DNA from: an uncultured Candidatus Saccharibacteria bacterium
GTDB taxonomy: Bacteria; Patescibacteriota; Saccharimonadia; Saccharimonadales; EFPC-124
Direction of reading: 5' to 3'
DNA: 64,000 bases
Assembly: GCA_965225085.1 (NCBI GenBank)
Contig: CBDDBE010000001.1
Coordinates: forward strand, 193,641-257,640
The position numbers and the translations under genes are program-made. The notes under the pieces were generated by a model. That model searched no databases and had not been told where the DNA came from. It saw nothing but the letters and a program-made list of their open reading frames with translations. Positions 16,053-61,273 of this stretch are shown here, piece after piece (the stretch's first letter is position 1; the number at the start of each line of letters is the position of its first letter).

Positions 16053-16079
16053 TTAGCAGTCAGCAGTCAAGACTGCTAG
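16053..16079. promoter_or_regulatory. CIRCE-variant operator upstream of grpE
   Basis: TTAGCAGTC-N9-GACTGCTAG. The spacer reads TTGACTgct on the coding strand. Confidence 0.75.
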
Positions 16080-16155
16080 ATAGTCGCGCCATTCTATGAT
16101 ATCCTCCTTTTCGGAACAGGTCCCTGTCCGACTCCTACAGAATGAGGTAGACGTC

Positions 16156-16608
16156 GTGAAGTATACTGGCATCAACTACGAAGTCGAACCTGGCAAGGCC
16201 GTCTTCTTCGGCTCTGAGGTCAACCGGAACATCCGCCCTGGTCAGTGGTACATGAAGGGCTTTCCTGCCGGCGACGCAATTGGAGCTGCCTTCGCCGCGA
16301 CGTACTGTCCGGTTCGCAGCATGCGCGATGTCCGTCGGGACATCCTGGGCTGCATCCAGAAGGCCAAGCGGGCTGGCACCGGTCGCGAGATGAGCATGGT
16401 CCTGGTCTACAAGACCCACGCCCTGTTCCTCTTCGCACAAGGCGTGCTGGCCGTCGAGGACTTCAGCCGGGAGCTCACCGAAGCCGCCGGCTCCATCGAC
16501 GTGCCGAATGTCAGATTCGGGCGTCGCCGACTGACGGTGCGCATCGTCGACAATGAAGCCTACTTCCAGGCCCCCGTCGCGGCCGACAGTGACGGTAACC
16601 TGATCTGA
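16156..16608 (+). CDS. Orphan hypothetical protein (cassette C)
   Basis: GTG start 7 nt after SD gaggt. The ATG at 16096 from the ORF track lies inside the -10 TATGAT (16095-16100). G+C-rich, no family recognised. Confidence 0.5.
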   Translation: MKYTGINYEVEPGKAVFFGSEVNRNIRPGQWYMKGFPAGDAIGAAFAATYCPVRSMRDVRRDILGCIQKAKRAGTGREMSMVLVYKTHALFLFAQGVLAVEDFSRELTEAAGSIDVPNVRFGRRRLTVRIVDNEAYFQAPVAADSDGNLI

Positions 16609-16612
16609 CATC

Positions 16613-16646
16613 CGAGGGGCGTGCCCGTACAAACGGGAACGCCCCT
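16613..16646 (+). terminator. GC-rich hairpin after cassette C
   Basis: gaggggcgt / acgcccctc outer stem with cccgt / acggg inner stem. Confidence 0.6.
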
Positions 16647-16718
16647 CATTCAATGTCTGTACATCTAACCCCAAATGCAGAAGACACATAGGACGTCGCG
16701 CGATCGACTACAGAAATA

Positions 16719-16747
16719 TTGACTATTTATAATTTTTATTGTATGAT
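16719..16747 (+). promoter_or_regulatory. Sigma70-like promoter of cassette D
   Basis: TTGACT-N17-TATGAT in an AT-rich stretch. Confidence 0.65.
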
Positions 16748-16780
16748 CTAAAACAGTTCTTCCCCCTCAGGAGGTGAACC

Positions 16781-16813
16781 ATGAATCGCAACGTGATATT
16801 GTTTGCGATCTAG
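16781..16813 (+). CDS. 10-codon leader mini-ORF (MNRNVILFAI)
   Basis: Near-perfect SD aggaggtga 5 nt upstream of the ATG. It lies in the 5' leader of cassette D and is followed by the direct repeat GAATTGAC x2 (16823-16830 and 16839-16846). Confidence 0.35.
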   Translation: MNRNVILFAI

Positions 16814-16896
16814 CCCTTACCGGAATTGACATGACGACGAATTGACGTTTCGACCGGCCCAATAGCAGCCAACCGAACCGACAAATCGGAGTAGCC

Positions 16897-17316
16897 ATGT
16901 CGTTTGACCCCGAAGCACTGGCCCGACTCGCAGAGTTCGCTCGCGAGCTCGACGCGCCAGAAGGAGAGACCTTCGATGAGCTGCAACAAGCTCGCGAAGA
17001 CGAAGCCGCTGCCACCCGCGAGGCGCTCCGTCGCCGAATCGCCGAGCTGGATGAACTGGCCAATCAGGCCCGTGAGTCTGCGGCACAAGCGACCAGGGAG
17101 TACAGAGCCAAACTCGCAAAGCAGATCGACCGAGTTCGGCACGAGCCCAGGCTCACCCGCGGACAACGCAACGACTGGTACCGCGATCTCGAGCGTGGCG
17201 CTATCCCAGCAGACGTATTCTACGAACGCGAGCTGCAACTGGGAACGTACTACAGTCTCCGTCGCAAGCAGCAACAGCTGAAGCGCGAGCTCGCTGCGCT
17301 GGAGAACGAGGGCTAA
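16897..17316 (+). CDS. Orphan coiled-coil, charged hypothetical protein (cassette D)
   Basis: 139 aa rich in E/R/A/L heptad-like sequence. SD ggag. G+C-rich. Confidence 0.55.
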   Translation: MSFDPEALARLAEFARELDAPEGETFDELQQAREDEAAATREALRRRIAELDELANQARESAAQATREYRAKLAKQIDRVRHEPRLTRGQRNDWYRDLERGAIPADVFYERELQLGTYYSLRRKQQQLKRELAALENEG

Positions 17317-17318
17317 CG

Positions 17319-17358
17319 CCCCCAGAAAAGGCCCTCAAGCCTCAACTGGGGGTCTTTT
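17319..17358 (+). terminator. Intrinsic terminator after cassette D
   Basis: cccccag / ctggggg stem with an inner aggc/gcct stem, followed by tctttt. Confidence 0.7.
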
Positions 17359-17381
17359 CATATCGCGATCCCGGAATGAGA

Positions 17382-18080
17382 CTACAACACTTCTTCGAGT
17401 GATTGACCTGCGTGCGCCACGAGCCCCATTACTTGTCGGTAACTCTGCCTGGTTGGGCCTAGCACGCCGATGTAGCTGTGATCGGAAAAGGGCGAATGGA
17501 ACCTGCTAATAATAAGCGAGCAGCCGCTTTCCTTGCCAATTGGGTTCTCGCGGCCAATATAGACGCTAAGCGGTTTATTGGGAGCTGCCTCGCGCAGCCA
17601 CGGCTCGAGGTTATCAAGTAATTGCGCAACCTCATGGACCGGACCAATAGCCTGTAGGAATTCTGGTCGCATGAATAAACGCGAAAATCCACTGAGGTAC
17701 AGTTGGTCGCCAATAGTTGCCAGCCCGACGTTGTGGGTTAGCTCGGCCAGCATATCCACGGCTGAGCGAATGGCAAATTCCGGCCTGCCAGCTTGGCTTA
17801 ACCGAGTATCCATAGCTCTTGCCGTGCGATCGACGGCGTTATTATCGGCAGCTGTTAGCTGATTGACATAGAATCGATAGCCCTTGTCGGTGGGAATCCG
17901 CCCCGCAGAGGTGTGCGGCTGCATGATATAGCCCATTTCCTCTAGGCGGCTCATCTCAGCGCGAATAGTTGCCGAGCTCACATCAAAGATCTTACCCAAC
18001 ATCACCGAGCCAACCGGGGAGGCAACCTCAGCATATTGCTCGACAATAGCAGCTAAAATATGGGCCTGTCGTTCAGTCAT
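17382..18080 (-). CDS. hrcA: Heat-inducible repressor HrcA
   Basis: Starts MTERQAHILAAIVEQY (wHTH N-terminus). The longer ORF-track start would translate through the CIRCE element, so the internal Met was chosen. Confidence 0.9.
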   Translation of the reverse strand: MTERQAHILAAIVEQYAEVASPVGSVMLGKIFDVSSATIRAEMSRLEEMGYIMQPHTSAGRIPTDKGYRFYVNQLTAADNNAVDRTARAMDTRLSQAGRPEFAIRSAVDMLAELTHNVGLATIGDQLYLSGFSRLFMRPEFLQAIGPVHEVAQLLDNLEPWLREAAPNKPLSVYIGRENPIGKESGCSLIISRFHSPFSDHSYIGVLGPTRQSYRQVMGLVAHAGQSLEEVL

Positions 18081-18101
18081 TATTCTATTATGGTACGTCG
18101 T

Positions 18102-18128
18102 TTGGCACTCACGAGTCAAGAGTGCCAA
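18102..18128. promoter_or_regulatory. CIRCE-variant operator upstream of hrcA
   Basis: TTGGCACTC-N9-GAGTGCCAA. The spacer reads TTGACTcgt on the coding strand. Confidence 0.8.
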
Positions 18129-18171
18129 ACCCAGACGCTGCGTGGCATACCGCAGCAAGTTACAAAAAGTG

Positions 18172-18200
18172 TTGACTTATACATATATACCTGCTATTAT
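18172..18200 (+). promoter_or_regulatory. Near-consensus sigma70-like promoter
   Basis: TTGACT-N17-TATTAT. Confidence 0.7.
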
Positions 18201-18206
18201 AGCCAA

Positions 18207-18777
18207 ATCAGCTTGGGCGACAAACGTTGCCCCTGCGTAATTTGATAGATAGTTTGTGAAGTCATGTCGGACTGAATCCACCAAAATCTTTGGTGTAGCC
18301 AGTCCGACATGACCCCCGACGCAAGTGTTTGCAGAGGGGTCCCGTTCAGTATCCGAAAGGGTCACGATGATGATGAGGTCCGTGCGGCACATGGCCGCTC
18401 CGAGCTCGAATGTGATCTAAGGCCGGCCGGCGCCCCGCCGACACGATGACCGCATATGCGGACCGCGAAGTTTGACCTAGCGTCAACGCCTTCACGGCTG
18501 TCATGCGGCATCGTCCACACCGTCTTTTTTCTTTTCCGAAAGGAACGCCTCGTGCGCAACAAGAAGAAACCCGTGGCGGCGTCGGCCGCACGCACTAAGT
18601 AGGTAACTTGTGGCACTGCAGGCCACGAGCATCGAAAGGTGCAAAGACGGGCTCGCCCGAGAGGATGATTTGCCCTCCGTGGATGTTGCATTAAACCACG
18701 GACGGCAGTCGCCTCTCAGGGCGAGCCCCTCGCTCCAAACTATCTATCGAAGCAAGCACCCTATCTGGGTGCTTTTC
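18207..18777 (+). ncRNA. Candidate ~570-nt structured non-coding RNA (unclassified), or a decayed cassette
   Basis: Bounded by a promoter and a terminator (agcaccc-tatct-gggtgct-tttc, 18755-18777). No SD-led ORF over 50 codons on the + strand. Contains a 13-bp perfect stem (18262-18274 / 18300-18312, with inner stem 18279-18285 / 18289-18295), an 80-nt near-perfect hairpin (18649-18728), and three cgaaagg loops. Confidence 0.4.
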
Positions 18778-18796
18778 AATTTGCTTTCATTTTTTA

Positions 18797-19648
18797 CTAG
18801 CTCAGGGTGAGCAGGAAATCATTTGTATCTTGCTCTAACCGTTCGGCAACGCGACGAAGACGCCGCCTAGAAGCTTCGCCGACAGAACCGCCCTCCACGA
18901 TATTGCGCACTTGCTGTGTCGCATGCTCAATAGTGTCATTCAGAACAATATGTAGGCGATCGTCCTGGCTGGCCATTTGAAAAATACGCTCTGCCGTCTG
19001 CAATCGACGCTTTAGCTCCAGCGGGTCCATCTCGCCGCGCTTCGAAAGTCTCTGCTGCCAGGTGTGAAAATCTGGCGGCAGGACCAACAACGCAATCGTG
19101 TCTTCCTTGGCATCTAGCGCATTCGCCACCCCACCAATATCCACATCAGTAATGGCGATGCGATGCTCACGCGTTGCGCGCTCGAGCTCACGGATACTGA
19201 TGCCCGAAACTTGCTGCCCATGAATCACCTCGGCCTCCAAAAATTCCCCGGCCTTGAGGTCGCGAAGCACGTCTGCCTCGCTGCGGAACCAATACTCCTT
19301 GCCGTCCTCTTCCCATTCACCATTGTTTTGACGCTTAGGGCGAGTTGTGTCAGAAATGACGTAGTGGTATTTGCCGGTTTTAACCAACTCCCAAATAATC
19401 GTATTGCGACCGGCCGCTGTTGGGCCACTCATAACCGCAAACGTTACGCGGCCTAGAACCCGGCGAGCATGATCGCTCGGCTGATAATTACTAATAGTTT
19501 CCTCAAATTCAGCACGATGCACCAGACGAGGCGACTGGGGCTGTGCCGAGAAGTTGTCTTCCATGCGGACACTATACAAAATATTGCCCTCTTTTCCTAA
19601 TGCATTCTGGGCGAAGTAACAAAAGAGCCGTCCGATCGGGCGGCTCAT
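18797..19648 (-). CDS. gmk: Guanylate kinase-like protein with N- and C-terminal extensions
   Basis: P-loop GPTAAGRNT and TTRPKR...EYWFRS...GEFLEAEVIHG match the Gmk core. The start is uncertain, with an alternative Met at 19564. Confidence 0.7.
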   Translation of the reverse strand: MSRPIGRLFCYFAQNALGKEGNILYSVRMEDNFSAQPQSPRLVHRAEFEETISNYQPSDHARRVLGRVTFAVMSGPTAAGRNTIIWELVKTGKYHYVISDTTRPKRQNNGEWEEDGKEYWFRSEADVLRDLKAGEFLEAEVIHGQQVSGISIRELERATREHRIAITDVDIGGVANALDAKEDTIALLVLPPDFHTWQQRLSKRGEMDPLELKRRLQTAERIFQMASQDDRLHIVLNDTIEHATQQVRNIVEGGSVGEASRRRLRRVAERLEQDTNDFLLTLS

Positions 19649-26747: not shown

Positions 26748-29700
26748 GTGGAAAATCAAGGGAACAATACCAGCACGCCAGTGGGTGGCAGCCGGGCTAA
26801 TACGACAATGGCCGCTTTTGATGTTGTGTCACCAGCAACATCCAGCGGGCCTCCGCAAGCACCGCCAGGCTTAGCTACGCCGACTCGGCAATCACCTCGC
26901 CCGCCACGTGGCAGGCGCACAGGGCTATTTATCAAGATAGCTATTGCCCTTGTTATCCTTGCACTTATCGGCGGCGTAGTTATCTTCATCCGCAGCATGG
27001 CGCCAAAGGGTTCGGTTCTGTCCAGCCAAAATTCCGACGCAACCCAACGCTTTAATACGCTCAATATCCCGCTCAATGACATATCCGGCGCGGGCACTGT
27101 TGTCCTGGACAACTCTCGCACGCTTAGCATTAACGGCCAGCTGAAGGCAAACAACGGCTTTGTACTGACCCCGTCAGGCCAGCCAACGAATGCGGTTGCC
27201 GGACAATTGTACTACGATAAAAGCTCCAACGAGCTGAACTATTACAACGGGGCTAGCTTCATCCCCTTAGTAAACAATCCTCAGACCGTCACAAGCATCA
27301 ACAACACCGGCGGTACATTCACGCTGGGCGGCGGACTGGGCCTGGTTGGCACCCAGCTGAGCAACACAGGCGTCATTAGCATCGCTTCTGGCAGTCCCAA
27401 CTTGACCGTCACAAACGACGGCAGCGGCAATGTCACCTTGTCGACCAGTGGCACTTCCCTGCAAAATACCGGCGGCACCGCTGGTTTTATTGCTATGTTC
27501 GACAGCACCAACAGCATCACCAATTCGCTGCTTAGCCAGTCGGGCAGCACGGTTTCGGTCAATGGTGGCGTGACCGTGTCGGGCACCTTGAATTTGCAAA
27601 ATAGCGCCACAACCACCATCAACCTAGCCAACACAACGAGCGGCGTGACAGGACAAATCTACAACGACGGCAACCTGCACGTCACTGGCGGCCAGAACAA
27701 CCTGTGGCTGGACGCGGGCGGGGTCGGCACAATATTCCTAAATGCCGGCAACAGCAACCCAGTCGCCATCAACGAATCAACCATCCCGTCATACCCGCTG
27801 GAAGTAAACGGCGACGTCAACCTGACGGCCGGTCACAGCTACCGTGTCAACGGCGTCGTCATCGGTGGGGGCGGCGGTGTCAGCAGCCTAGACGGCCTAT
27901 CTGGTGCGCTAAATCTGGCTAACTCGACGGGCGGCGGCACGACAGTTACCATCAACGACGCCAGTACGGCAGCGAAGGGTATCGCCCAGTTCAATGCGAC
28001 CAACTTTACAGCCGCTGGTGGCATAATCAACACCATCCAGAATATTAGCGCCGCTTCTTCTCCAACATTTGCCGGTATAAATACCAACAGCATTACGCCT
28101 AGCGCCGCGCTCACCGTTGGCGCAACCAGCCAAAACCTCACTCTGCAAGGCGCCGTCACCACGCTCAGCAGCACCAGTGGCGCAAACACCACTTCTCTGA
28201 CCTTCGTCACGCCAACTGCCAATGCAATCTACCGACTCCAAGCAGCCGCAGCCGGCACATACGACATATGCACAACGGCCGGCAACTGTGTGGGTGGAGG
28301 CGTTACATCACCGGGCGGCACGCCAAATCAGCTAGCCAAGTTCACCGCCGGACAGATCATCGGCGATTCGATCATTTCTGATAATGGCTCACTGGTGACT
28401 ATCAGCGGCAACCTAACCGTAACCGGTACTACCACGCTCAGCACACCGCTGGCGGTTGCGAGCGGTGGCACAGGTTCGGCGACTGCCAGCGGTGCGCGCA
28501 CCAACCTTGGCGCGGCAGCATCGGGGGCAAATAACGATATCACATCTTTGTCTGGGCTGACCACGGCGCTTAGCGTTGTTCAGGGTGGCACTGGCGCAAC
28601 ATCGCTTACCGCCAATGGCATCTTGCTGGGCAACGGCACCAGCCCCGTCACAACCATTGCAGCCGGCACGTCTGGTCAATGTTTGACTGCAACCGGTGGT
28701 GCACCGGCATTTTCGACATGTAACCTCCAAACCGCCTACAACAACGCAACTGGCGGAACGACGCCGGAGGTCAAGCTCAATACAACCGGTGGGGCGCTGG
28801 ATATCCAAGACGCCGACACGACACTTGGAACCAATCTACTGAATATCCGCGCCAGCAATGGTTCTGGCCTGGGTCAAATATTATTCGGCGTTGGCAGCAC
28901 TGGCGCAACCGTCTACCAAAACAGCGTCAACTCTGCAACGGCCTTTATGGTGGAAAACGCCGCCGGAGCAGCGCAGCTGACGGTCGACACCACCGGCAGC
29001 AGGGTTGTCATTGGGGCACTTCAAACCAACACTATCTCCCCTACCGCTGCACTGACGATCGGCGCGACAGGGCAGAGTTTTACGCTTCAGGGCAACGCCA
29101 GCAGCACCGTCACGGCAACTGGCGGTGGATTCACCACGACTGTTGGGTTTAGCGGCTCACCGACTGGCGCTGTAACGTACAATTTTGACCGGACGGTGGC
29201 TGCGGGGACGTATACTATATGTACGACAATCGGCAACTGTGCAGGAACAGGCACCGGCGTCACAACCAGCGGCGGAACCACCAATGCTATCCCCAAGTTC
29301 CTTTCAGCCCAATCTCTCGGGAATTCAATTATTACCGACAACGGCTCAACCGTTACGATCGGCGGGGCGCTGGGCGTCAACACCATCACGCCAACGGCCG
29401 CTTTGACTATTGGCGCAACTGGCCAAAACCTTACCCTACAAGGCGCCACCGTCAACCTCACCGCTACCTCCGGCGGCGTCACCAACAGCCTAACATTCGC
29501 GACGCCTGCCAGCGGGAACAAGACCATCACCCTACCCAACGCAAGCGGTACTGTCGCCGTATCGGCCTCAGGCCCCCTAACACTTGATGCAGCAGGCAAT
29601 CTTACCTGTCCAACTTGTGTTACCAGCGGTGGTGGCGGTGGTGGCGTGGGCGCAGTCGACAGCGTAGATGGACTAACCGGAGCGCTCACGATCGCCAACT

Positions 29701-32700
29701 CATCCGGCGTAGGCTCTACTATTACCATCAATAACGCTAGTACGGCAGCGAAGGGTATCGCTCAATTCAACGCCACCAACTTTACCGCCAGCAGCGGAAC
29801 CGTCAACACCATTCAGGACATCACCACAGCGTCAGCACCGACGTTTGGCCAACTAACGCTCAGCTCTAGTCAGGCCACCGCCGCGATGCTGACCGTTAAC
29901 AATACAAACGGCAGCGGCACAGGCAATCTTATCGACCTTCAGCTAAACGGCTCGAGCAAATTCAGCGTGGCGCCAAATGGCAACGCCACAGTCGTTGGGA
30001 CACTGACGTCGGGCGCCATAAACGGACAAACCATCAGCAGCAGCGCAAGCTTTACGGGCACGCTGGGAGTTACGGGACTCACTACCCTCAGCGGTGGCGC
30101 AACAGTAGTCGGCACGTTAGCTGCAAACACGCTCACGCCGAGCAGCTCGCTGACCGTCGGCGCGACCGGCCAGAGCTTTACGATCCAGGGTAATGCCAGC
30201 AGCACAATAACGGCGACCGGGGGCGGCTTCACCACGACAATTGGCTTTAGTGGCGCGCCAACTGGCGCCGTGACGTACAATTTTGACCGGACCGCATCTG
30301 CAGGAACATACACTATATGTACGACAGTGGGCAACTGTGCAGGATCAGGCAGCGGCGTGACGACACCCGGCGGGACGGCGAATACACTAGCTAAGTTCAC
30401 GGCGGGGCAGGCTATTGGAAATTCAGGTATTACCGACGACGGGACCACCATCACCCTTGGCGAGAATGTCAGCATCAGCGCCAACAAGACCTTGGCGCTC
30501 GCCAACGGCACAGGCACGGTCACTCAGACCTACACCAACACAACCGGCACAGCCTCAACGCTCAACGCAACCAACAGCGCCAGTAGCAGTACCACAACCG
30601 TCACCGGTCAAAGCATCAACCTGACCGGAACCAACAACGCCGGTGGCGCCAACACCGTAAACGGCATCAGCTTTGGCAATGTCACGGCCGCGACGAATAA
30701 CAGCTTCTACGGACTCAATTTTGGCACAGGCATGACCGACATACTGCGGTACAACGGCGCACAGTTGATATCTGGGACTGGGCTTATTCAGAACGCAGCG
30801 TTTGACTCTGCTCTGGCCTACACCAACATCACTAAGGTTGGAGCGCTTACTAGCGGATCAATCGCCTCGGGCTTTGGCACCATTGCCACGGCTAATACCA
30901 TCACTGGCACGACGCTCAATGGCACGACAGGCATAAATACCGGCGCGGCTGGCGGCACACAGCGTATCGACAGCTCGGGCAACCTGGTTAATATTGGCAC
31001 CATAACCTCAGGGCTGATCAACGGGCAGACCATCAGCAGTGCGGCAAACTTTACCGGTACACTTGGCGTTACCGGCCTAGCCACACTCAATGGCGGCGCC
31101 ACCGTCGTAGGCACGCTTACTGCCAACACCATTACCCCCAGCAGCTCCCTCACCGTTGGCGCCACTGGTCAAGCCTTTACATTGCAGGGCAACGCCAGCA
31201 GCACCGTCACGGCAACGGGCGGTGGATTCACCACGACCGTAGGGTTTAGCGGCGCACCGACTGCGGCTGTGACCTACAACTTCGACCGGACGGTGTCCGC
31301 TGGGACGTATACTATATGTACGACGTTTGGTAACTGTGCTGGTACAGGCGGTGGCGTGACGACACCAGGCGGCACAACGAACTCACTAGCCAAGTTCACT
31401 GCAGGGCAAGTTATTGGAAACTCAGGCATCAGCGACGACGGCACCACCATCAGCACCTCCGAAAAAATCTCGCAAGCATTCACCGGCACAAGCGGTACGG
31501 GCACAACGTTGGCCGTCACCGACAGCTCAGCCAGCGGCGCCAGCACACTCCAAGGCATGGCCGTCAACATCACCGGCACGAACACCAGCGGCACGAACAC
31601 CATCACTGGCGTCAACTTTGGCAACGTCGCAGCTGCAACCAACAACACCTACAATGGCATCGCCTTCGGCACCGGATTCAACAGCCTCCTCAGCTACAAT
31701 GGCACGCAATTGATCTCAGGTGCCGGCCTCCTTCAGAATGCCGCCATCGATTCGACACTGGCCTACAGCAACCTCCAAAAGGTGGGGACGCTCAGCGTCG
31801 GGTCTATCGTTAGTGGTTTCGGCACCATCTCGACTACTAACAACATCAGCACAACCGCCACTGTTCAGGGCGGTACGGGCATCTTCACTGGTGCGAATGC
31901 GCTGACGGTAGGCACAGCGTCCACGAACACCGGTGCCATCGTCTTCAAGGGGTCGGGCGGTACGGGCACGCTCACGCTGCAGGGCCCAACGACGCCAAAT
32001 GCCGGTAACTTCACCCTCACGATCCCGGCTATAACTGGCAACGCAAATATCTGTACAGACAATAGTGTCTGCACGGGCTACGCAGCAGCCAGCGGCAGCT
32101 CAAGCTATGTGCAGCTTCAGGGCGCTACGCCAGGCTCAGCTCAAACTGGTCACTTCAACATCACCGGTACCGGGATCGCAGGAACCGCGATCCAAACACC
32201 GCTCGTTGATGCCGCTACCGCTGCGACTGCCCTCAATGTCGGCACCACAAACGCAAATCAAATCAACCTCAACCAAAATACGGCCATCGCGACTAATAAA
32301 TCATTCACGGCAAATGGCGCCGCTCTCTTCCAAGATGCGACCAACTCAACAACTGCCCTCAAGGTGGTGAATAGCGCCAATACCAGCACTGCGTTCGACG
32401 TAGACACCACCAATAGCTTTGTCGGCATCGGCACGAGCGCCCCAAGTCGTACGCTTGATACCTCCGTGAACAATTCCCAGATCACCGCGCCAATGGCACT
32501 CTTTGAACAGGCCGGCAGTGGGGATGCCAACATCGAATTCAAGACCGCCGCCGCCAACAGCAACTACTACGTCGGGGTCGACAGTAGCAATTCCAACACC
32601 TTTACCATCAACTCATACATTGCAGCAACCTCCACAGTCGGCTCAACCTACTCACTTGGCAACGGGACCAACGACGGTACGCACGATTTCAACACTAACT

Positions 32701-35700
32701 TCATGGAAGCCACAAACTTTACCACGACCACAGCTGGAACGGTTTCGTCCATTACCGTCGACATGCGAAGCGTTGTAAGTACCAGCGACACTATTTCCGT
32801 AGCCCTCTACGCCAACAGCGCAGGCGCGCCAGGCGCACTACTGGCGTCGAGCACGCCACAGACCATTAGCATCACCAACGTGAACGGCGACAACTACAAC
32901 ACACTCACCATCCCAACGACAGCACTCACCGCTAGCACGCAATATTGGCTATCCATCAACACTAGCGGCGATGACCAATTCTGGCACAGCAGCGGCACAG
33001 GGCACACGACCGTCTATCTCGCCCATGCGAACACTAGCTGGCCGAATCCATTCGGAACGCCAACCTCGAGCGACGCCAACACCGCCCTCGCCGCATATGC
33101 GACCGTCACACCCACCACGTCACTCACGGATGCTAATGCCAACCCAATTTTCACACTCAGCCAGACCGGCCGTGCAACCTTCAAAAACTCAGCCGATTCA
33201 GCAACCGCCTTCCAGGTCCAAAATACTGCAGGAGGGGCCAATCTAACTGTTGATACCTCAAACAATCAAGTTGTACTGGGTAAGGCCGGCTCATTAGCTG
33301 GCAAGTTGGTCGTCGCAAATGCGTCAAATTCCAATATAGTCACCCTCCAGGCTGCAACGTCCGGTTCGGGCAACAACACAATTACAATCCCGAACGAAAC
33401 GGGCACCCTCTGTACGACAGCCTCAACTGTCTGTTCACTGCAGACAGCCTACAATGCCTCGACGGGTGGCTCGAGCACAACGCCGACCATCAAGCTCAAC
33501 AACTCCGTCGCGGACATCAACATCCAAGACACTGACGGCGGCCTGGGCGCCGGTAACTTCCTGAGCCTGCGCGCCAAAAACGCCGGCGGGCTGGGCGCCG
33601 TGGTCTTTGGGTTCGCCATCCAGGGGCAGCTCTTCGAGAAACCAACCACCGACAGCGCAACCACTGTCCAAATCGAAAATAGCAGTGGCAACACACTCTT
33701 TGCCGTCGATTCAAGTGGAGGATACGTCAACATTGGCTCAACGGGTGGCTCAACAGGTGGCACCGGCTCGGCGTTCAACGGTACAACAACCAATATCGAG
33801 ACGTCTCCAAATGCCAATACAACCACCAACATTGGTGGTACGGCTCAAAGCTCGGGCACAGCCACTATTAACATCGGCTTCACCAATACCGCAGGAGGCG
33901 GCAGCAACGTCAATATCGGCTCCGGCGGCACAGCTTCCAGCGGCACGACGACCGTTCGAGCAAATGGCGCGCTCACCCTGACGAGCGGCACAGCTGCTAC
34001 ATGGTCAACCACAACCGGCAACCTAACGCTCCAGGCAGGCGGAACCAGCAGTCTCCTCCTCGACACCGGTGGCGCGGGTACCGTATCAGTCGGCAACACA
34101 AACGCAACCACAGTCAACATCGGCGGTACAGCCAGCGCCGTCACCAATATCGCAACTGGCGACGTTGCTCACACAGTGCACATTGGCGACGGCGGCTCAA
34201 CAACATCGCAAAGCGTGACTATCGGCTCGACCGGCAGCTCTACCAGTTCGACAAACATCCAGGGTGGTTCAGGCGGCGGAATCAATATTGGTTTCGTTGC
34301 CTCGGCACAGACCATTCATATGGGATCAGCGGTATCGACGTCGACCACGAGCATACAGGGCGGAAACGGCTCATCCGCAGTCCAGATTGATGCCCAAACT
34401 GGCGGTACAGTATCGATCGCCTCACTCAACAACGAAGCGCTAGCTCTCGGAACCGGAGCTACATCCAACACTATAACTATTGGCGGTACAGTCGAGAGCG
34501 GTCTGCTCACGGTCGGGCGGTCCACCTCTTCCAACACTATCAGCATCGGTGATGCTGCCACAACCAATACTCAGACCGTCAACATCGCTACAAGCGCTAC
34601 CAGCACCGGTGTCGACACCGTAACCATCGGCAGCACCAACAGCTCGAGCGCCACTACCCTTCAGGGTGGCACGGGCAACATCAACCTTACGACCAACTCG
34701 GCATCGGCCAAGATAATCGCCAAGTCGAACACGAACTCTACTACCGCCTTCCAGGTAAACAGTTCTGGCAGCACCGTGCTCGACGTCGATACCACAAACG
34801 GCTTCGTCGGCATTGGCAACGCCGCCCCGAGCGTTGCATTGGACATAGGTCCAAGCAGCCTGGGCGCCAGCCAGCTTATTCAGGCTCGCCTCGGTGACTT
34901 GCTTTTCCAAAGCCAACAGGGTAGCAGCAGTGGCATCGTCGCCGCCACCAGCAGGGGCTCCAACGGTAATCTAACCCTGGACGGCGCCAACGGCAATGGC
35001 GTTTACCTCAGTCCATCAACCACGAACAACAACTTCCTGGCAGCCGGCGGCGGCAAGGTCATGATCGGCGGACAGGACGTTCCAACAGGCAACCTGAGCT
35101 TCGAAACCGGCGCCGATAAAGTCATCAACGTCATTACCGCTACCAGCGGCAACAACGGCAACGCTCTGACTATGCAGGCTGGTAGCGGCAATGGCACGAA
35201 CAAAAACGGTGGTAATCTCGTGCTCCAGGGCGGCAACAGCACTGGTAGCGGCGCGGCCGGAGTCGTTATAGTCAAACCTCAAACCGACTCGACAACCGCC
35301 TTCCAAGTCCAAAACGCCAGCGGTGTCGCATACTTCATCGCCGACACAACCAACGAACGGCTCTACGTCGGCCCAAGCGCGGGCGACACAACGGGCGCAC
35401 TGCTGGTGCTCGGCAACAAGACCAACGTTGGCGACCCAACCGGCGTAGAAGGCGGGCTCTATTACAACAACGCGCTCAAGGAATTCCGCTGCTACCGTAA
35501 TGGATATTGGAGCGGCTGCGATGTAGACCAAGTCGATTCCGGCTTCAATGTTACGGATGAATTCCTGAGCGGCGGTACATCATCGAGCGGTCTAATCGGT
35601 GCGCTGGGCTGGAACCGGGCAGCAATTGGCTCAGGCGGCGTAACATTCGACTACAACAACGGTATCGCTCCAACAGCGGACCACCCAGGTATCATCCGCT

Positions 35701-36239
35701 TCAGGGCAAACAACACAGGCGGCGTTGCCAACAGTGGACTCTCGATTGCACTCGGTAATGGTAGCGCGGGCAGTATGGTGCTAAGTCCAAGCTACGACAT
35801 GAAGGCGACAGCAGGCGTCGAGAGCTCGACCAGCGGTACGCAAACCTTCCGCGTCGGGTTCCACAATGAACACGGCTCGACAACCGCTCCAACTACAGGC
35901 GTGTGGTGGGAAGCAGACCCCACCGTCAATGCCAACTGGCGCTACTGCTACGTCAATGCCACACCAGCAACAATCTGCGCATCAAGCGGAGTCGGCATAA
36001 CCGCCAGCGTCTTCGCTCGCCTAGAGATACACGTAACTGCCTTGGGCAGTGGCACCTCAAATGTCGTCTTCACGATAAACAGCAACGGAAACAGCGCGAC
36101 CAACACGATTTCAGGAGTAACGGTTAACACCACCAACCTCGTCTACCCGGCCATGACCTGCTATGCCCAGGGGACATCCGAGCAAGACTGTGACGTAGAT
36201 TACTACCAGGCGAGCGGTACTGCGACTGCGCTGAGGTAA
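26748..36239 (+). CDS. Giant (3,163 aa) membrane-anchored repetitive surface protein, putative adhesin or fibre
   Basis: Single uninterrupted ORF. Pro-rich cytoplasmic N-terminus, one TM (IKIAIALVILALIGGVVIFI), then T/G/S/N/A-rich repeats, phage-tail-fibre-like ASTAAKGIAQFNATNFTA motifs (x2), and a Cys-containing C-terminal globular domain. Confidence 0.85.
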   Translation: MENQGNNTSTPVGGSRANTTMAAFDVVSPATSSGPPQAPPGLATPTRQSPRPPRGRRTGLFIKIAIALVILALIGGVVIFIRSMAPKGSVLSSQNSDATQRFNTLNIPLNDISGAGTVVLDNSRTLSINGQLKANNGFVLTPSGQPTNAVAGQLYYDKSSNELNYYNGASFIPLVNNPQTVTSINNTGGTFTLGGGLGLVGTQLSNTGVISIASGSPNLTVTNDGSGNVTLSTSGTSLQNTGGTAGFIAMFDSTNSITNSLLSQSGSTVSVNGGVTVSGTLNLQNSATTTINLANTTSGVTGQIYNDGNLHVTGGQNNLWLDAGGVGTIFLNAGNSNPVAINESTIPSYPLEVNGDVNLTAGHSYRVNGVVIGGGGGVSSLDGLSGALNLANSTGGGTTVTINDASTAAKGIAQFNATNFTAAGGIINTIQNISAASSPTFAGINTNSITPSAALTVGATSQNLTLQGAVTTLSSTSGANTTSLTFVTPTANAIYRLQAAAAGTYDICTTAGNCVGGGVTSPGGTPNQLAKFTAGQIIGDSIISDNGSLVTISGNLTVTGTTTLSTPLAVASGGTGSATASGARTNLGAAASGANNDITSLSGLTTALSVVQGGTGATSLTANGILLGNGTSPVTTIAAGTSGQCLTATGGAPAFSTCNLQTAYNNATGGTTPEVKLNTTGGALDIQDADTTLGTNLLNIRASNGSGLGQILFGVGSTGATVYQNSVNSATAFMVENAAGAAQLTVDTTGSRVVIGALQTNTISPTAALTIGATGQSFTLQGNASSTVTATGGGFTTTVGFSGSPTGAVTYNFDRTVAAGTYTICTTIGNCAGTGTGVTTSGGTTNAIPKFLSAQSLGNSIITDNGSTVTIGGALGVNTITPTAALTIGATGQNLTLQGATVNLTATSGGVTNSLTFATPASGNKTITLPNASGTVAVSASGPLTLDAAGNLTCPTCVTSGGGGGGVGAVDSVDGLTGALTIANSSGVGSTITINNASTAAKGIAQFNATNFTASSGTVNTIQDITTASAPTFGQLTLSSSQATAAMLTVNNTNGSGTGNLIDLQLNGSSKFSVAPNGNATVVGTLTSGAINGQTISSSASFTGTLGVTGLTTLSGGATVVGTLAANTLTPSSSLTVGATGQSFTIQGNASSTITATGGGFTTTIGFSGAPTGAVTYNFDRTASAGTYTICTTVGNCAGSGSGVTTPGGTANTLAKFTAGQAIGNSGITDDGTTITLGENVSISANKTLALANGTGTVTQTYTNTTGTASTLNATNSASSSTTTVTGQSINLTGTNNAGGANTVNGISFGNVTAATNNSFYGLNFGTGMTDILRYNGAQLISGTGLIQNAAFDSALAYTNITKVGALTSGSIASGFGTIATANTITGTTLNGTTGINTGAAGGTQRIDSSGNLVNIGTITSGLINGQTISSAANFTGTLGVTGLATLNGGATVVGTLTANTITPSSSLTVGATGQAFTLQGNASSTVTATGGGFTTTVGFSGAPTAAVTYNFDRTVSAGTYTICTTFGNCAGTGGGVTTPGGTTNSLAKFTAGQVIGNSGISDDGTTISTSEKISQAFTGTSGTGTTLAVTDSSASGASTLQGMAVNITGTNTSGTNTITGVNFGNVAAATNNTYNGIAFGTGFNSLLSYNGTQLISGAGLLQNAAIDSTLAYSNLQKVGTLSVGSIVSGFGTISTTNNISTTATVQGGTGIFTGANALTVGTASTNTGAIVFKGSGGTGTLTLQGPTTPNAGNFTLTIPAITGNANICTDNSVCTGYAAASGSSSYVQLQGATPGSAQTGHFNITGTGIAGTAIQTPLVDAATAATALNVGTTNANQINLNQNTAIATNKSFTANGAALFQDATNSTTALKVVNSANTSTAFDVDTTNSFVGIGTSAPSRTLDTSVNNSQITAPMALFEQAGSGDANIEFKTAAANSNYYVGVDSSNSNTFTINSYIAATSTVGSTYSLGNGTNDGTHDFNTNFMEATNFTTTTAGTVSSITVDMRSVVSTSDTISVALYANSAGAPGALLASSTPQTISITNVNGDNYNTLTIPTTALTASTQYWLSINTSGDDQFWHSSGTGHTTVYLAHANTSWPNPFGTPTSSDANTALAAYATVTPTTSLTDANANPIFTLSQTGRATFKNSADSATAFQVQNTAGGANLTVDTSNNQVVLGKAGSLAGKLVVANASNSNIVTLQAATSGSGNNTITIPNETGTLCTTASTVCSLQTAYNASTGGSSTTPTIKLNNSVADINIQDTDGGLGAGNFLSLRAKNAGGLGAVVFGFAIQGQLFEKPTTDSATTVQIENSSGNTLFAVDSSGGYVNIGSTGGSTGGTGSAFNGTTTNIETSPNANTTTNIGGTAQSSGTATINIGFTNTAGGGSNVNIGSGGTASSGTTTVRANGALTLTSGTAATWSTTTGNLTLQAGGTSSLLLDTGGAGTVSVGNTNATTVNIGGTASAVTNIATGDVAHTVHIGDGGSTTSQSVTIGSTGSSTSSTNIQGGSGGGINIGFVASAQTIHMGSAVSTSTTSIQGGNGSSAVQIDAQTGGTVSIASLNNEALALGTGATSNTITIGGTVESGLLTVGRSTSSNTISIGDAATTNTQTVNIATSATSTGVDTVTIGSTNSSSATTLQGGTGNINLTTNSASAKIIAKSNTNSTTAFQVNSSGSTVLDVDTTNGFVGIGNAAPSVALDIGPSSLGASQLIQARLGDLLFQSQQGSSSGIVAATSRGSNGNLTLDGANGNGVYLSPSTTNNNFLAAGGGKVMIGGQDVPTGNLSFETGADKVINVITATSGNNGNALTMQAGSGNGTNKNGGNLVLQGGNSTGSGAAGVVIVKPQTDSTTAFQVQNASGVAYFIADTTNERLYVGPSAGDTTGALLVLGNKTNVGDPTGVEGGLYYNNALKEFRCYRNGYWSGCDVDQVDSGFNVTDEFLSGGTSSSGLIGALGWNRAAIGSGGVTFDYNNGIAPTADHPGIIRFRANNTGGVANSGLSIALGNGSAGSMVLSPSYDMKATAGVESSTSGTQTFRVGFHNEHGSTTAPTTGVWWEADPTVNANWRYCYVNATPATICASSGVGITASVFARLEIHVTALGSGTSNVVFTINSNGNSATNTISGVTVNTTNLVYPAMTCYAQGTSEQDCDVDYYQASGTATALR
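28087..31870 (+). repeat. Intragenic ~1-kb tandem repeats (four copies, the last two most similar)
   Basis: Core units start near 28141, 29085, 30183 and 31182. Protein level: TLQGNASSTVTATGGGFTTTVGFSG.PTGAVTYNFDRT..AGTYTICTT.GNCAG. Long identical DNA runs are shared between the copies at 29085 and 31182. Confidence 0.85.
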
Positions 36240-54573: not shown

Positions 54574-54927
54574 ATGACTGCTATCAGCCGAAGCAAGATC
54601 CAAGAACACCTCGATCGGCTCGCAGGCCTGCCAGAGCGTTATCCCGCTCTGCAGCAGATCCTCGTGGCCATCCGCGAGGAACTACAGAAGGCCGCGAGTG
54701 AAGGCCTGCCCACCGATCGTTCGGAGCGTCAAACGATCGGCGCATGGACTGTGCAACGGGTGCTCGTCGGGGGCGCAGTGCCGTCCGTGGTCGTCACGTG
54801 GCCGGAGGGGGATGAAGACAGCGACAACGTCGAAGACCTCAAGGCCGTCCTGGAGCGAAAGGACGTCTCCTACTGGCGCCCCGACGTTTCTCAGCGCGAC
54901 TGCCTGCTCATCAGCCTTATCGGCTAG
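54574..54927 (+). CDS. Orphan hypothetical protein (cassette J)
   Basis: 117 aa. Promoter TTGCAT-N16-(tgg)TATAGT (54510-54537). SD gggaga. G+C-rich. Confidence 0.5.
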   Translation: MTAISRSKIQEHLDRLAGLPERYPALQQILVAIREELQKAASEGLPTDRSERQTIGAWTVQRVLVGGAVPSVVVTWPEGDEDSDNVEDLKAVLERKDVSYWRPDVSQRDCLLISLIG

Positions 54928-58696: not shown

Positions 58697-58833
58697 ATAT
58701 GCTTATCTTATCATCTGCAAATTGAGGTGGCAACTACCTGATAATATCTCAAAATTAACTATTGACTTATTCAAGTAAAAACATTAAAATATACTTTGGT
58801 CAATTCAACAGCCATTCCTACCTAGGAGAAAAC

Positions 58834-59478
58834 ATGGCCGTCCGCCCCAGCCTGCCGCAAGGCCGATCATCCAAGATCACCGTGGCCGCCGCGGCCCTGG
58901 TCGCGCTCACCATCTGGATCGTGAGCGCTTGCAGTGGCGCTGCCGCTGACAAGTTCGACCAGGCGTTCAACGGGTTCCATGCAACCCTGACCACGTACAA
59001 CCAGTCCGGTCAGCCGGTCGACGAGATCCACGGCGCGAGCTTCCACGTCACTCGTGACTCGGAGTTCGACACTCAGGACAGCAAGGGCAACAGCAATAAC
59101 GACTCCAAGGTCCTGCTGATCAGCCTGGGCAGTTCGCACATCGAGCACGTCGGCTCAACGATGATCCTGGCCCAGGACGGGCTCGTGGACATCACCGCGC
59201 AGATCCCGCCAGAGTTCCGGTTCAGCAACAGCAAGCCGGGCACGCCCTGGCTCAACGACCTGAAGTACAACTTCAGTCGCTACTGGAGCGGCACGGCGAA
59301 GACCATCATGGTCCGCTCCCAGGACGGGACGCCGATCAAGGTTTATGGCGGCAACGACGTCCAGGTGCTCAGTACTGATGTGCCGAGCTCCACCTGGTTC
59401 CGGGTGGACGGCAAGACGCTGTTCGTCTACAGGGCCGACTACACAGTGGTCGACAACAACCTGCTCGCGAACAACTAG
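58834..59478 (+). CDS. Orphan lipoprotein (cassette K)
   Basis: Lipobox IVSAC. Promoter TTGACT-N17-TAAAAT (58762-58790). SD aggaga. G+C-rich. Confidence 0.6.
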   Translation: MAVRPSLPQGRSSKITVAAAALVALTIWIVSACSGAAADKFDQAFNGFHATLTTYNQSGQPVDEIHGASFHVTRDSEFDTQDSKGNSNNDSKVLLISLGSSHIEHVGSTMILAQDGLVDITAQIPPEFRFSNSKPGTPWLNDLKYNFSRYWSGTAKTIMVRSQDGTPIKVYGGNDVQVLSTDVPSSTWFRVDGKTLFVYRADYTVVDNNLLANN

Positions 59479-60622: not shown

Positions 60623-60779
60623 CTGCTTTCTTTACAGTCTAGTATACCAGCCGTAAGGAATACATTCCTAAGCTACACTTGCAACTCATGTGACTCCGGC
60701 GTGCGACTTGACTAAACTTCTAAATAATTATACTATCTATGAGTTCACAAGAGCCATTACTCGAGTAAGGAACAGTCAC

Positions 60780-61217
60780 ATGATCACGAGTGTGAACCTC
60801 GGCTTCGACGAGGCGAGGGACCTGCTGGACCAGCTCCTCGCGGCTGCGGCCAAGGACGCGAAGCTGGGGGCCGTCGCGATCTGCATCGTCGACGGTACCG
60901 GACGCCAGCTGATCGCTGCTGCGATGGACGGCGTCAAGACGCCCAGCATCGCGGTCGCCCACGACAAGGCCGTGACCGCGGCTGCGTGGCGCCGAGGCAC
61001 CATGGAGTTCTGCTACGCAATGCAGGACGGCAAGTGGGTGCCCGCCGGAGCCAAGGCCTGGTCCGGCATCGATGTGATGGCCGCAACCAACGCCTGGCCG
61101 TCTTTCACGCCGTGGGGCGGTGGCGCCCTGGTGATGTACGAAGGCAAGGTCGTGGGCGCCATCGGCGTCTCGGGGCGAACCGAGGCCGAGGACCACGAGC
61201 TGGCCTCTAGCGTGTAG
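60780..61217 (+). CDS. GlcG/HbpS-like (DUF336, haem-binding/degrading family) protein (cassette L)
   Basis: Contains AICIVDGTGRQL...SIAVAHDKAVTAA...GGGALVMYEGKVVGAIGVSGRTEAEDHELA. Promoter TTGACT-N17-TACTAT (60708-60736). Confidence 0.65.
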   Translation: MITSVNLGFDEARDLLDQLLAAAAKDAKLGAVAICIVDGTGRQLIAAAMDGVKTPSIAVAHDKAVTAAAWRRGTMEFCYAMQDGKWVPAGAKAWSGIDVMAATNAWPSFTPWGGGALVMYEGKVVGAIGVSGRTEAEDHELASSV

Positions 61218-61223
61218 GCCGCC

Positions 61224-61262
61224 GGCCCTGTTGCCCAGTCCGATTGGACGGGCAACAGGGCC
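61224..61262. terminator. Long GC hairpin between cassette L and tsaC
   Basis: ggccctgttgccc / gggcaacagggcc (13 bp) plus inner gtcc/ggac, followed by actttt. Confidence 0.7.
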
Positions 61263-61273
61263 ACTTTTAATTT

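Follow-up and report, generated by a model that had tools for sequence, protein, structure and literature searches.

A unit of about 570 nt that runs from a promoter to a terminator and contains no credible open reading frame lies between the heat-shock repressor gene hrcA and a guanylate-kinase-like gene (gmk) in a genome of the Saccharimonadales (Saccharibacteria/TM7, candidate phyla radiation; G+C 54%). We tentatively interpret this element as a strain-specific, stand-alone cassette for a structured non-coding RNA, that is, as a candidate RNA gene, a reading that we hold to be possible and to fall just short of probable. No known RNA family includes the element, which stands as an orphan candidate that cannot yet be called a new family. 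All coordinates below refer to the window, the whole stretch of 64,000 nt that was analysed.

The left neighbour of the element is hrcA (17382-18080, minus strand, PF01628) and the right neighbour is gmk (18797-19648, minus strand, PF00625, 1.8e-21). The 665 non-coding nucleotides between them form the longest gap in a tightly packed window. An independent assembly, from Logan (run SRR9179562), agrees without a difference over 4202 nt that include both flanks of the element, and thus the element is not an assembler artefact. The segment had been described beforehand as G+C-rich; its G+C content is indeed above the window mean, but the excess is modest (0.57-0.62 versus 0.545). Three signals mark out the locus:

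18102-18128, no strand assigned: CIRCE operator TTGGCACTC-N9-GAGTGCCAA, read directly and also present in relatives.
18172-18200, plus strand: sigma-70-type promoter TTGACT-N17-TATTAT with a TG extension (10/12 match, promoter scan).
18754-18784, plus strand: intrinsic terminator with an 8-bp stem, a 5-nt loop and a T-rich tail (terminator scan and sequence reading).

The CIRCE operator overlies the divergent hrcA promoter, for which the scan gives a promoter-like site at 18119-18090, and marks the left edge of a variable slot that is described below. That a promoter and a terminator bracket the element had been proposed from reading alone, and scanning recovers both signals, on the same strand and with ~570 nt between them. 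Transcription would start near 18206-18208. The TTGACT hexamer at -35 also heads other cassettes in the same genome, and past the terminator stem (AAGCACCC/GGGTGCTT, 18754-18774) a T-tract stands on the plus-strand side only. The scan returned four promoter-like sites in the region, against 0.8 expected. A second promoter-like site, TTGTCG-N16-TATAAT (18196-18223, minus strand, 10/12), stands back-to-back with the plus-strand -10 box and, from its place upstream of CIRCE, aims at hrcA; it may simply be a consequence of the -10 region being AT-rich and near-palindromic.

The body is devoid of coding signals. Neither six-frame inspection nor a Shine-Dalgarno-anchored scan of start codons found a credible ORF across its ~570 nt, codon periodicity (GC3) is absent, and none of 10 stop-free segments from the six frames matches Pfam. 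Further, TAA, TAG and TGA all interrupt each of the six frames, which excludes a recoded gene as well. A protein-coding or recoded gene was ruled out on these three grounds (stops in every frame, no periodicity, no Pfam match), in agreement with the preliminary description, whose list of short reading frames had nonetheless overlooked a 66-codon GTG frame (18610-18810, plus strand). This frame reads across the terminator and is not credible as a gene. The sole Shine-Dalgarno-like motif of the body, AAGGA, lies 8 nt ahead of GTG 18552, which opens a frame of 16 codons, and is contained in a UUCC-GAAA-GGAA hairpin; the Shine-Dalgarno-anchored scan found no usable ribosome-binding site at any other start codon.

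The predicted fold is, by comparison, very strong. The plus-strand RNA from 18205 to 18780 has a minimum free energy (MFE) of -278 kcal/mol, and comparison with 100 dinucleotide-shuffled sequences yields z = -12.9. For two GC-rich cassettes of the genome that do encode proteins, z is -5.9 and -3.0, so that the fold of the element is far beyond the local background. For the window-wide comparison, MFE was regressed on G+C content. The element contains perfect inverted repeats of 14, 13 and 10 bp, and a perfect inverted repeat of at least 13 bp occurred in none of 150 shuffles. The predicted parts are, from 5' to 3':

18215-18232, plus strand: 5' hairpin GGGCGAC-AAAC-GTTGCCC, 7 bp, just past the inferred start (z = -2.3).
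18241-18256, plus strand: 5' arm of the closing stem P1, paired with 18736-18751.
18261-18313, plus strand: hairpin H1, with a perfect stem of 14 bp separated by a 4x4 internal loop from a 7-bp stem that carries a 3-nt loop (z = -9.6).
18314-18423, plus strand: segment of small helices that includes the first CC-GAAA-GG hairpin, at about 18349-18365 (z = -0.3, chance level).
18424-18588, plus strand: central branched domain closed by CGGCCGGCGCC/GGCGTCGGCCG (fold prediction).
18592-18642, plus strand: hairpin with an 8-bp core (z = -3.3; -5.0).
18646-18731, plus strand: hairpin H-big, with about 31 bp arranged as five stacked helices, interrupted by one bulged A and one C-C mismatch and capped by a 13-nt loop (-59 kcal/mol, z = -8.2).
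18736-18751, plus strand: 3' arm of P1, paired with 18241-18256.

The fold signal is driven by H1, H-big and the end-to-end stem of 13-16 bp, and comes also from the hairpins at 18592-18642 and 18443-18514. P1, absent from the helices listed in the preliminary description, consists of 13 perfect base pairs plus one G-U and two A-U pairs (16 bp), and its extended arms of 23 nt are 83% complementary. It closes the entire body, its arms being 479 nt apart, and it begins ~35 nt past the inferred start and stops 3 nt short of the terminator; with this placement, signals and fold make up one coherent unit. The central domain holds an irregular 72-nt hairpin with G-U pairs and bulges (18443-18514, z = -2.6), a helix UUUUUUCUU/AAGAAGAAA and a second GAAA-tetraloop hairpin (18534-18545), which contains the only Shine-Dalgarno-like motif of the element. 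A third such hairpin, GCAUC-GAAA-GGUGC (18629-18642), appears as an alternative local fold within 18592-18642.

Every helix identified earlier by hand was recovered, including the near-perfect 80-nt hairpin (18649-18728) and the palindrome CCGCATATGCGG with its distal partners at 18443-18455 and 18503-18514. Only one needed correction, a stem given as 13 bp, which does enclose a 7-bp stem as stated and is 14 bp long (18261-18274 with 18300-18313). The three CGAAAGG motifs are also present. They lie within 286 nt, all on the plus strand, where ~0.04 would be predicted from the density in the window (eight copies in 64 kb, both strands together), and each of the plus-strand sites can form a local GAAA-tetraloop hairpin.

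Folding energy hardly distinguishes the strands. MFE is nearly equal (-278.1 kcal/mol for plus and -278.8 kcal/mol for minus), with 15 G-U pairs on each, and the strongest helices are pure Watson-Crick, so that the main helices could form equally well in either RNA or in single-stranded DNA. The ensembles do differ: diversity is 52 for the plus strand and 115 for the minus strand, and mean positional entropy is 0.39 and 0.74, respectively. The irregularities of H1 and H-big are gathered in discrete internal loops, not scattered as mismatches. From the promoter and terminator, the location of all three CGAAAGG sites and the better-defined ensemble, we favour the plus strand as the one that would be expressed.

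Comparison with known RNA families was uniformly negative, as the preliminary description had anticipated from consensus sequences. Searching the window with Rfam 15 at gathering thresholds gave no match in the element and only four tRNAs elsewhere; with permissive filters (E <= 10, 18050-18900) only microRNA, snoRNA and lncRNA noise appeared, at 12-21 bits against thresholds of 40-80. The families without a match include RNase P, tmRNA, SRP, 6S, riboswitches, group I and II introns, ROOL, GOLLD, OLE and HEARO, and ARAGORN found neither tRNA nor tmRNA in 18000-18900. A CRISPR array and the antitoxin RNA of a type III toxin-antitoxin system were ruled out because the element has no direct-repeat families. 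In general form the element resembles the large ornate ncRNAs (ROOL, GOLLD, OLE, raiA, HEARO), which are likewise ~0.5 kb, stand-alone, non-coding and multi-branched, with a terminal closing helix and several GNRA tetraloops, and whose function is unknown or has been studied only recently; structures have been published for ROOL, GOLLD and OLE (PMC12286853). Those RNAs are, however, widely conserved with covariation, whereas the element is a singleton without an Rfam match at E <= 10. Unlike them, it does not lie beside tRNAs or phage genes, and its main helices are much more perfect.

Homologs were equally elusive. None was found in ~50 related Saccharimonadales loci, and nhmmer detected no similar element in 80 HrcA loci from genome contigs, in 12 close-relative loci retrieved by exact-protein look-up or in 62 metagenome loci; 239 IMG/VR loci, picked by their stem or loop patterns, gave chance matches only. 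Searches of phage and plasmid records by blastn had no match to the element. At the protein level, the only ORF that gene callers place in the element (71 aa, spurious) stands alone, with no relative among 5.8 billion proteins, and a stop-free frame of 117 aa returned two low-complexity matches only among 1.84 billion representatives. Scanning of 16 related loci for analogous structured, ORF-less units found ordinary terminator hairpins only, and a literature search on ncRNAs of Saccharibacteria or Patescibacteria yielded nothing relevant.

The site that the element occupies, upstream of hrcA, is a hypervariable cargo slot in the clade (HrcA at least 82% identical), and this slot is a new context for the element. 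Relatives from the genome-contig scan, with HrcA identity of up to 73%, have the upstream neighbour gene 40-200 nt from hrcA. Closer relatives, from exact-protein look-ups and the metagenome scan (HrcA identity 82-87%), lack the element; the nearest other HrcA is only 87% identical and the species is rare. Seven loci (L081/L082, L084, L223, L224, L330, L332 and L392) carry in the slot an orphan, fast-evolving protein of ~100-112 aa, present as two tandem copies in L330; L392 is the closest relative. Members of this orphan family are 26-45% identical to one another, number only six in 5.8 billion proteins and match neither Pfam nor phage, and GC3 is 0.78-0.86 in the two members measured. At other loci the slot is taken by unrelated proteins (260, 148 or 179 aa) or by a gene that runs the other way, and in three (L083, L085 and L393) the slot is empty. 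In the six cargoes measured, G+C is 62-66%, versus 53-56% for the locus; an origin of this GC-rich cargo in Actinobacteria, as the host, would be a guess.

Each slot unit that was read along its whole length has an AT-rich promoter of its own right after CIRCE and a terminator hairpin of its own. In the three loci where the promoter was read (L084, L223 and L224) the -35 hexamer abuts CIRCE, which suggests that the orphan-family genes may belong to the HrcA regulon. The element shares this outer design around an ORF-less body. Like the GC-rich accessory cassettes of the clade (the orphan family, and an HbpS-like gene at 60780-61217) it sets GC-rich cargo between a promoter of TTGACT type and a terminator of its own; those cassettes are protein-coding with GC3 of 0.78-0.86, whereas the element lacks both an ORF and codon periodicity and exceeds them in length by ~150 nt. 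No similarity between the element and the slot cargoes was found by nhmmer, tblastn or profile HMM. For the orphan family in particular, all tblastn matches to the element have E > 0.3 and none is collinear, and a profile HMM run on the six frames gives at most 0.6 bits.

Since in relatives the site is either filled by unrelated protein genes or empty, the element is not a conserved housekeeping RNA. Its absence from the closest relatives (82-87% HrcA identity) indicates that it is recent or dispensable and, while showing that it is not ancestral to the clade, says little about its age within the species.

Taken together, a stand-alone structured RNA is the best single reading because the helices are nested and compatible, a closing stem fits between promoter and terminator, the tetraloops lie on the plus strand and the plus-strand ensemble is well defined. 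The element would then be a strain-specific accessory transcription unit in the hypervariable slot, upstream of and divergent from hrcA, expressed as a stable, heavily base-paired non-coding RNA that acts as RNA and not as mRNA. Genomic context counts for this reading as well: in relatives the slot, where filled, carries a unit that looks expressed, with promoter, cargo and terminator, and the 665-nt gap is the longest in the window. The predicted architecture is closed: a 5' hairpin, a 16-bp terminal stem, two long near-perfect hairpins, a branched centre and three GAAA-tetraloop hairpins. The terminal stem and the 5' hairpin might protect the RNA ends, and the duplex segments of 20-30 bp could serve as substrates or platforms for double-strand-specific proteins such as RNase III. 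Against this reading count the lack of a homolog in any search and the segment 18314-18423, which folds at the level of shuffled sequence; it is also weakened by the pure Watson-Crick, strand-equal helices, since inverted repeats at the DNA level would look alike. A bolder version, to which we give a slim chance, makes the element the first representative of a class of ~0.5-kb structured RNAs not described before, which soil Saccharimonadales would carry as accessory cargo; the RNA would replace or counteract a factor linked to stress or to host interaction in an epibiotic bacterium of minimal genome. The RNA would in that case be expressed beside the HrcA operator, where relatives carry the fast-evolving orphan protein.

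The principal competitor of the structured RNA, unlikely on balance and still of real weight, is a non-functional remnant in a recombination or insertion hotspot, with a leftover promoter and terminator around a recent or scrambled GC-rich body that is perhaps transcribed. The hypervariability of the slot, which holds the orphan family, other proteins, a reversed gene or nothing, fits this account, as do the restriction of the element to one genome, the unstructured segment 18314-18423 and a G+C content similar to that of neighbouring protein cargo. The preliminary description had likewise considered a decayed cassette, and variable cargo at this locus in relatives lends substance to the idea; on the other hand, the body retains no residual coding signal, with neither periodicity nor a Pfam match, and no trace of the orphan family by tblastn or profile HMM. 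Decay, moreover, does not make nested perfect inverted repeats of 14, 13 and 10 bp or a stem across 479 nt, and the window is densely coding: reduced, dense genomes usually purge useless DNA.

We regard as rather improbable that the element is a DNA-level, MITE-like non-autonomous insertion (18234/18244-18748/18758, ~505-525 bp) that landed between a promoter and a terminator. As in MITEs and palindromic intergenic repeats (Correia, ERIC), there is a terminal inverted repeat, GATAGATAGTTTG/CAAACTATCTATC, perfect over 13 bp and 83% complementary over 23 nt, the position is intergenic, and the syntenic sites of relatives lack the element; its Watson-Crick stems and equal folding on both strands are also what such an insertion would show. 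Mobile repeats of this kind differ from it in several respects. It is single-copy where searched: neither the repeat nor any other part of the element recurs in the 64-kb window or in 394 retrieved loci, and the terminal-repeat pattern is absent from JGI metagenomes and IMG/VR. No target-site duplication is clear: the best possibility, CCC (3 bp), occurs at just one of the three boundaries considered, and the perfect part of the repeat is at its inner end and not at the tips. The element is also larger and has far more internal structure, and an insertion leaves its internal hairpins and plus-strand GAAA loops unexplained.

That the transcript is instead a structured mRNA for a very small protein, similar to the mRNAs of hok-type type I toxins, seems very unlikely. 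Such mRNAs are also several hundred nucleotides long and highly folded, with paired ends and a ribosome-binding site held in a hairpin; here the 5' and 3' ends pair, and the AAGGA 8 nt before GTG 18552 would be sequestered in the UUCC-GAAA-GGAA hairpin. The other candidate frame (18456-18602, 48 codons) encodes a short hydrophobic run followed by basic residues. This run is, however, just ~13 residues long, the 16-aa peptide from GTG 18552 is purely basic, and neither makes a credible membrane peptide. ATG 18456 is without a Shine-Dalgarno sequence, the promoter scan shows no antisense promoter facing a candidate ORF, as hok-type systems would have for their antisense RNA, and neither frame is recorded among 15 billion predicted proteins. 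Burial of its Shine-Dalgarno sequence inside a GAAA-tetraloop hairpin likewise speaks against the 16-codon frame as a leader peptide, and the earlier suggestion of a leader or attenuator meets a further obstacle in that nothing but the convergent gmk, with its stop codon at 18797, comes after the terminator, and no same-strand gene lies downstream.

Finally, a retron-like reading, in which the element would be an orphan template RNA serving a reverse-transcriptase system (a1/a2 end repeats, small 5' stem-loops, long 3' hairpin), is scarcely credible, for although a retron ncRNA (msr-msd) also has terminal inverted repeats and a long hairpin beside the 3' repeat, as the 13-bp repeat that joins the ends and the 80-nt hairpin that stops 5 nt before the 3' arm would provide, the neighbours here are hrcA and gmk, no reverse transcriptase or transposase is adjacent, nearby ORFs contain no RT domain, Rfam gives no msr match, and the ~510 nt between the repeats give the body two to three times the length of the retron ncRNAs known so far, roughly 150-250 nt.

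If the structured RNA is real and functional, it would join a very short list of candidate large non-coding RNAs from the candidate phyla radiation, and it would mean that minimal genomes swap RNA as well as protein cargo at defined hotspots. Were the element merely a remnant or a MITE, the finding would be an ordinary one. The slot beside hrcA and the GC-rich orphan cargo in it offer a handle on gene acquisition by such genomes.

Several other features were observed in the window. On the far side of hrcA, grpE is adjacent in most relatives, at a distance of 17-24 nt; here, in the region 16053-17360, the two genes are ~1.37 kb apart. This stretch contains, on the opposite strand, two orphan ORFs rich in G+C (16096-16608 and 16897-17316), and Pfam matches neither. 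The ORF at 16096-16608 is followed by a GC-rich hairpin (~16614-16647, by eye), and the ORF at 16897-17316 has a TTGACT-N17-TATGAT promoter at 16719-16747 and a terminator at 17339-17353 (scan). The grpE gene has acquired a CIRCE-like operator of its own, TTAGCAGTC-N9-GACTGCTAG (16053-16079). Another GC-rich cassette (60700-61270, 64% G+C, GC3 0.81) encodes the HbpS-like/GlcG protein (PF03928, 1.4e-24) between a consensus promoter, TTGACT-N17-TATACT, and a 17-bp terminator hairpin. Its design matches that of the hrcA-slot cargo, and it looks horizontally acquired; a search for plasmid matches to it was negative. An ORF of 3163 codons (26748-36239, plus strand) encodes a giant protein with no Pfam domain at E <= 0.001. 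Two further segments are compositional outliers, an orphan ORF of 117 aa with 63% G+C (54574-54927) and the gene for a DUF5052 protein (58762-59478, PF16475, 1.2e-49) with GC3 of 0.84.
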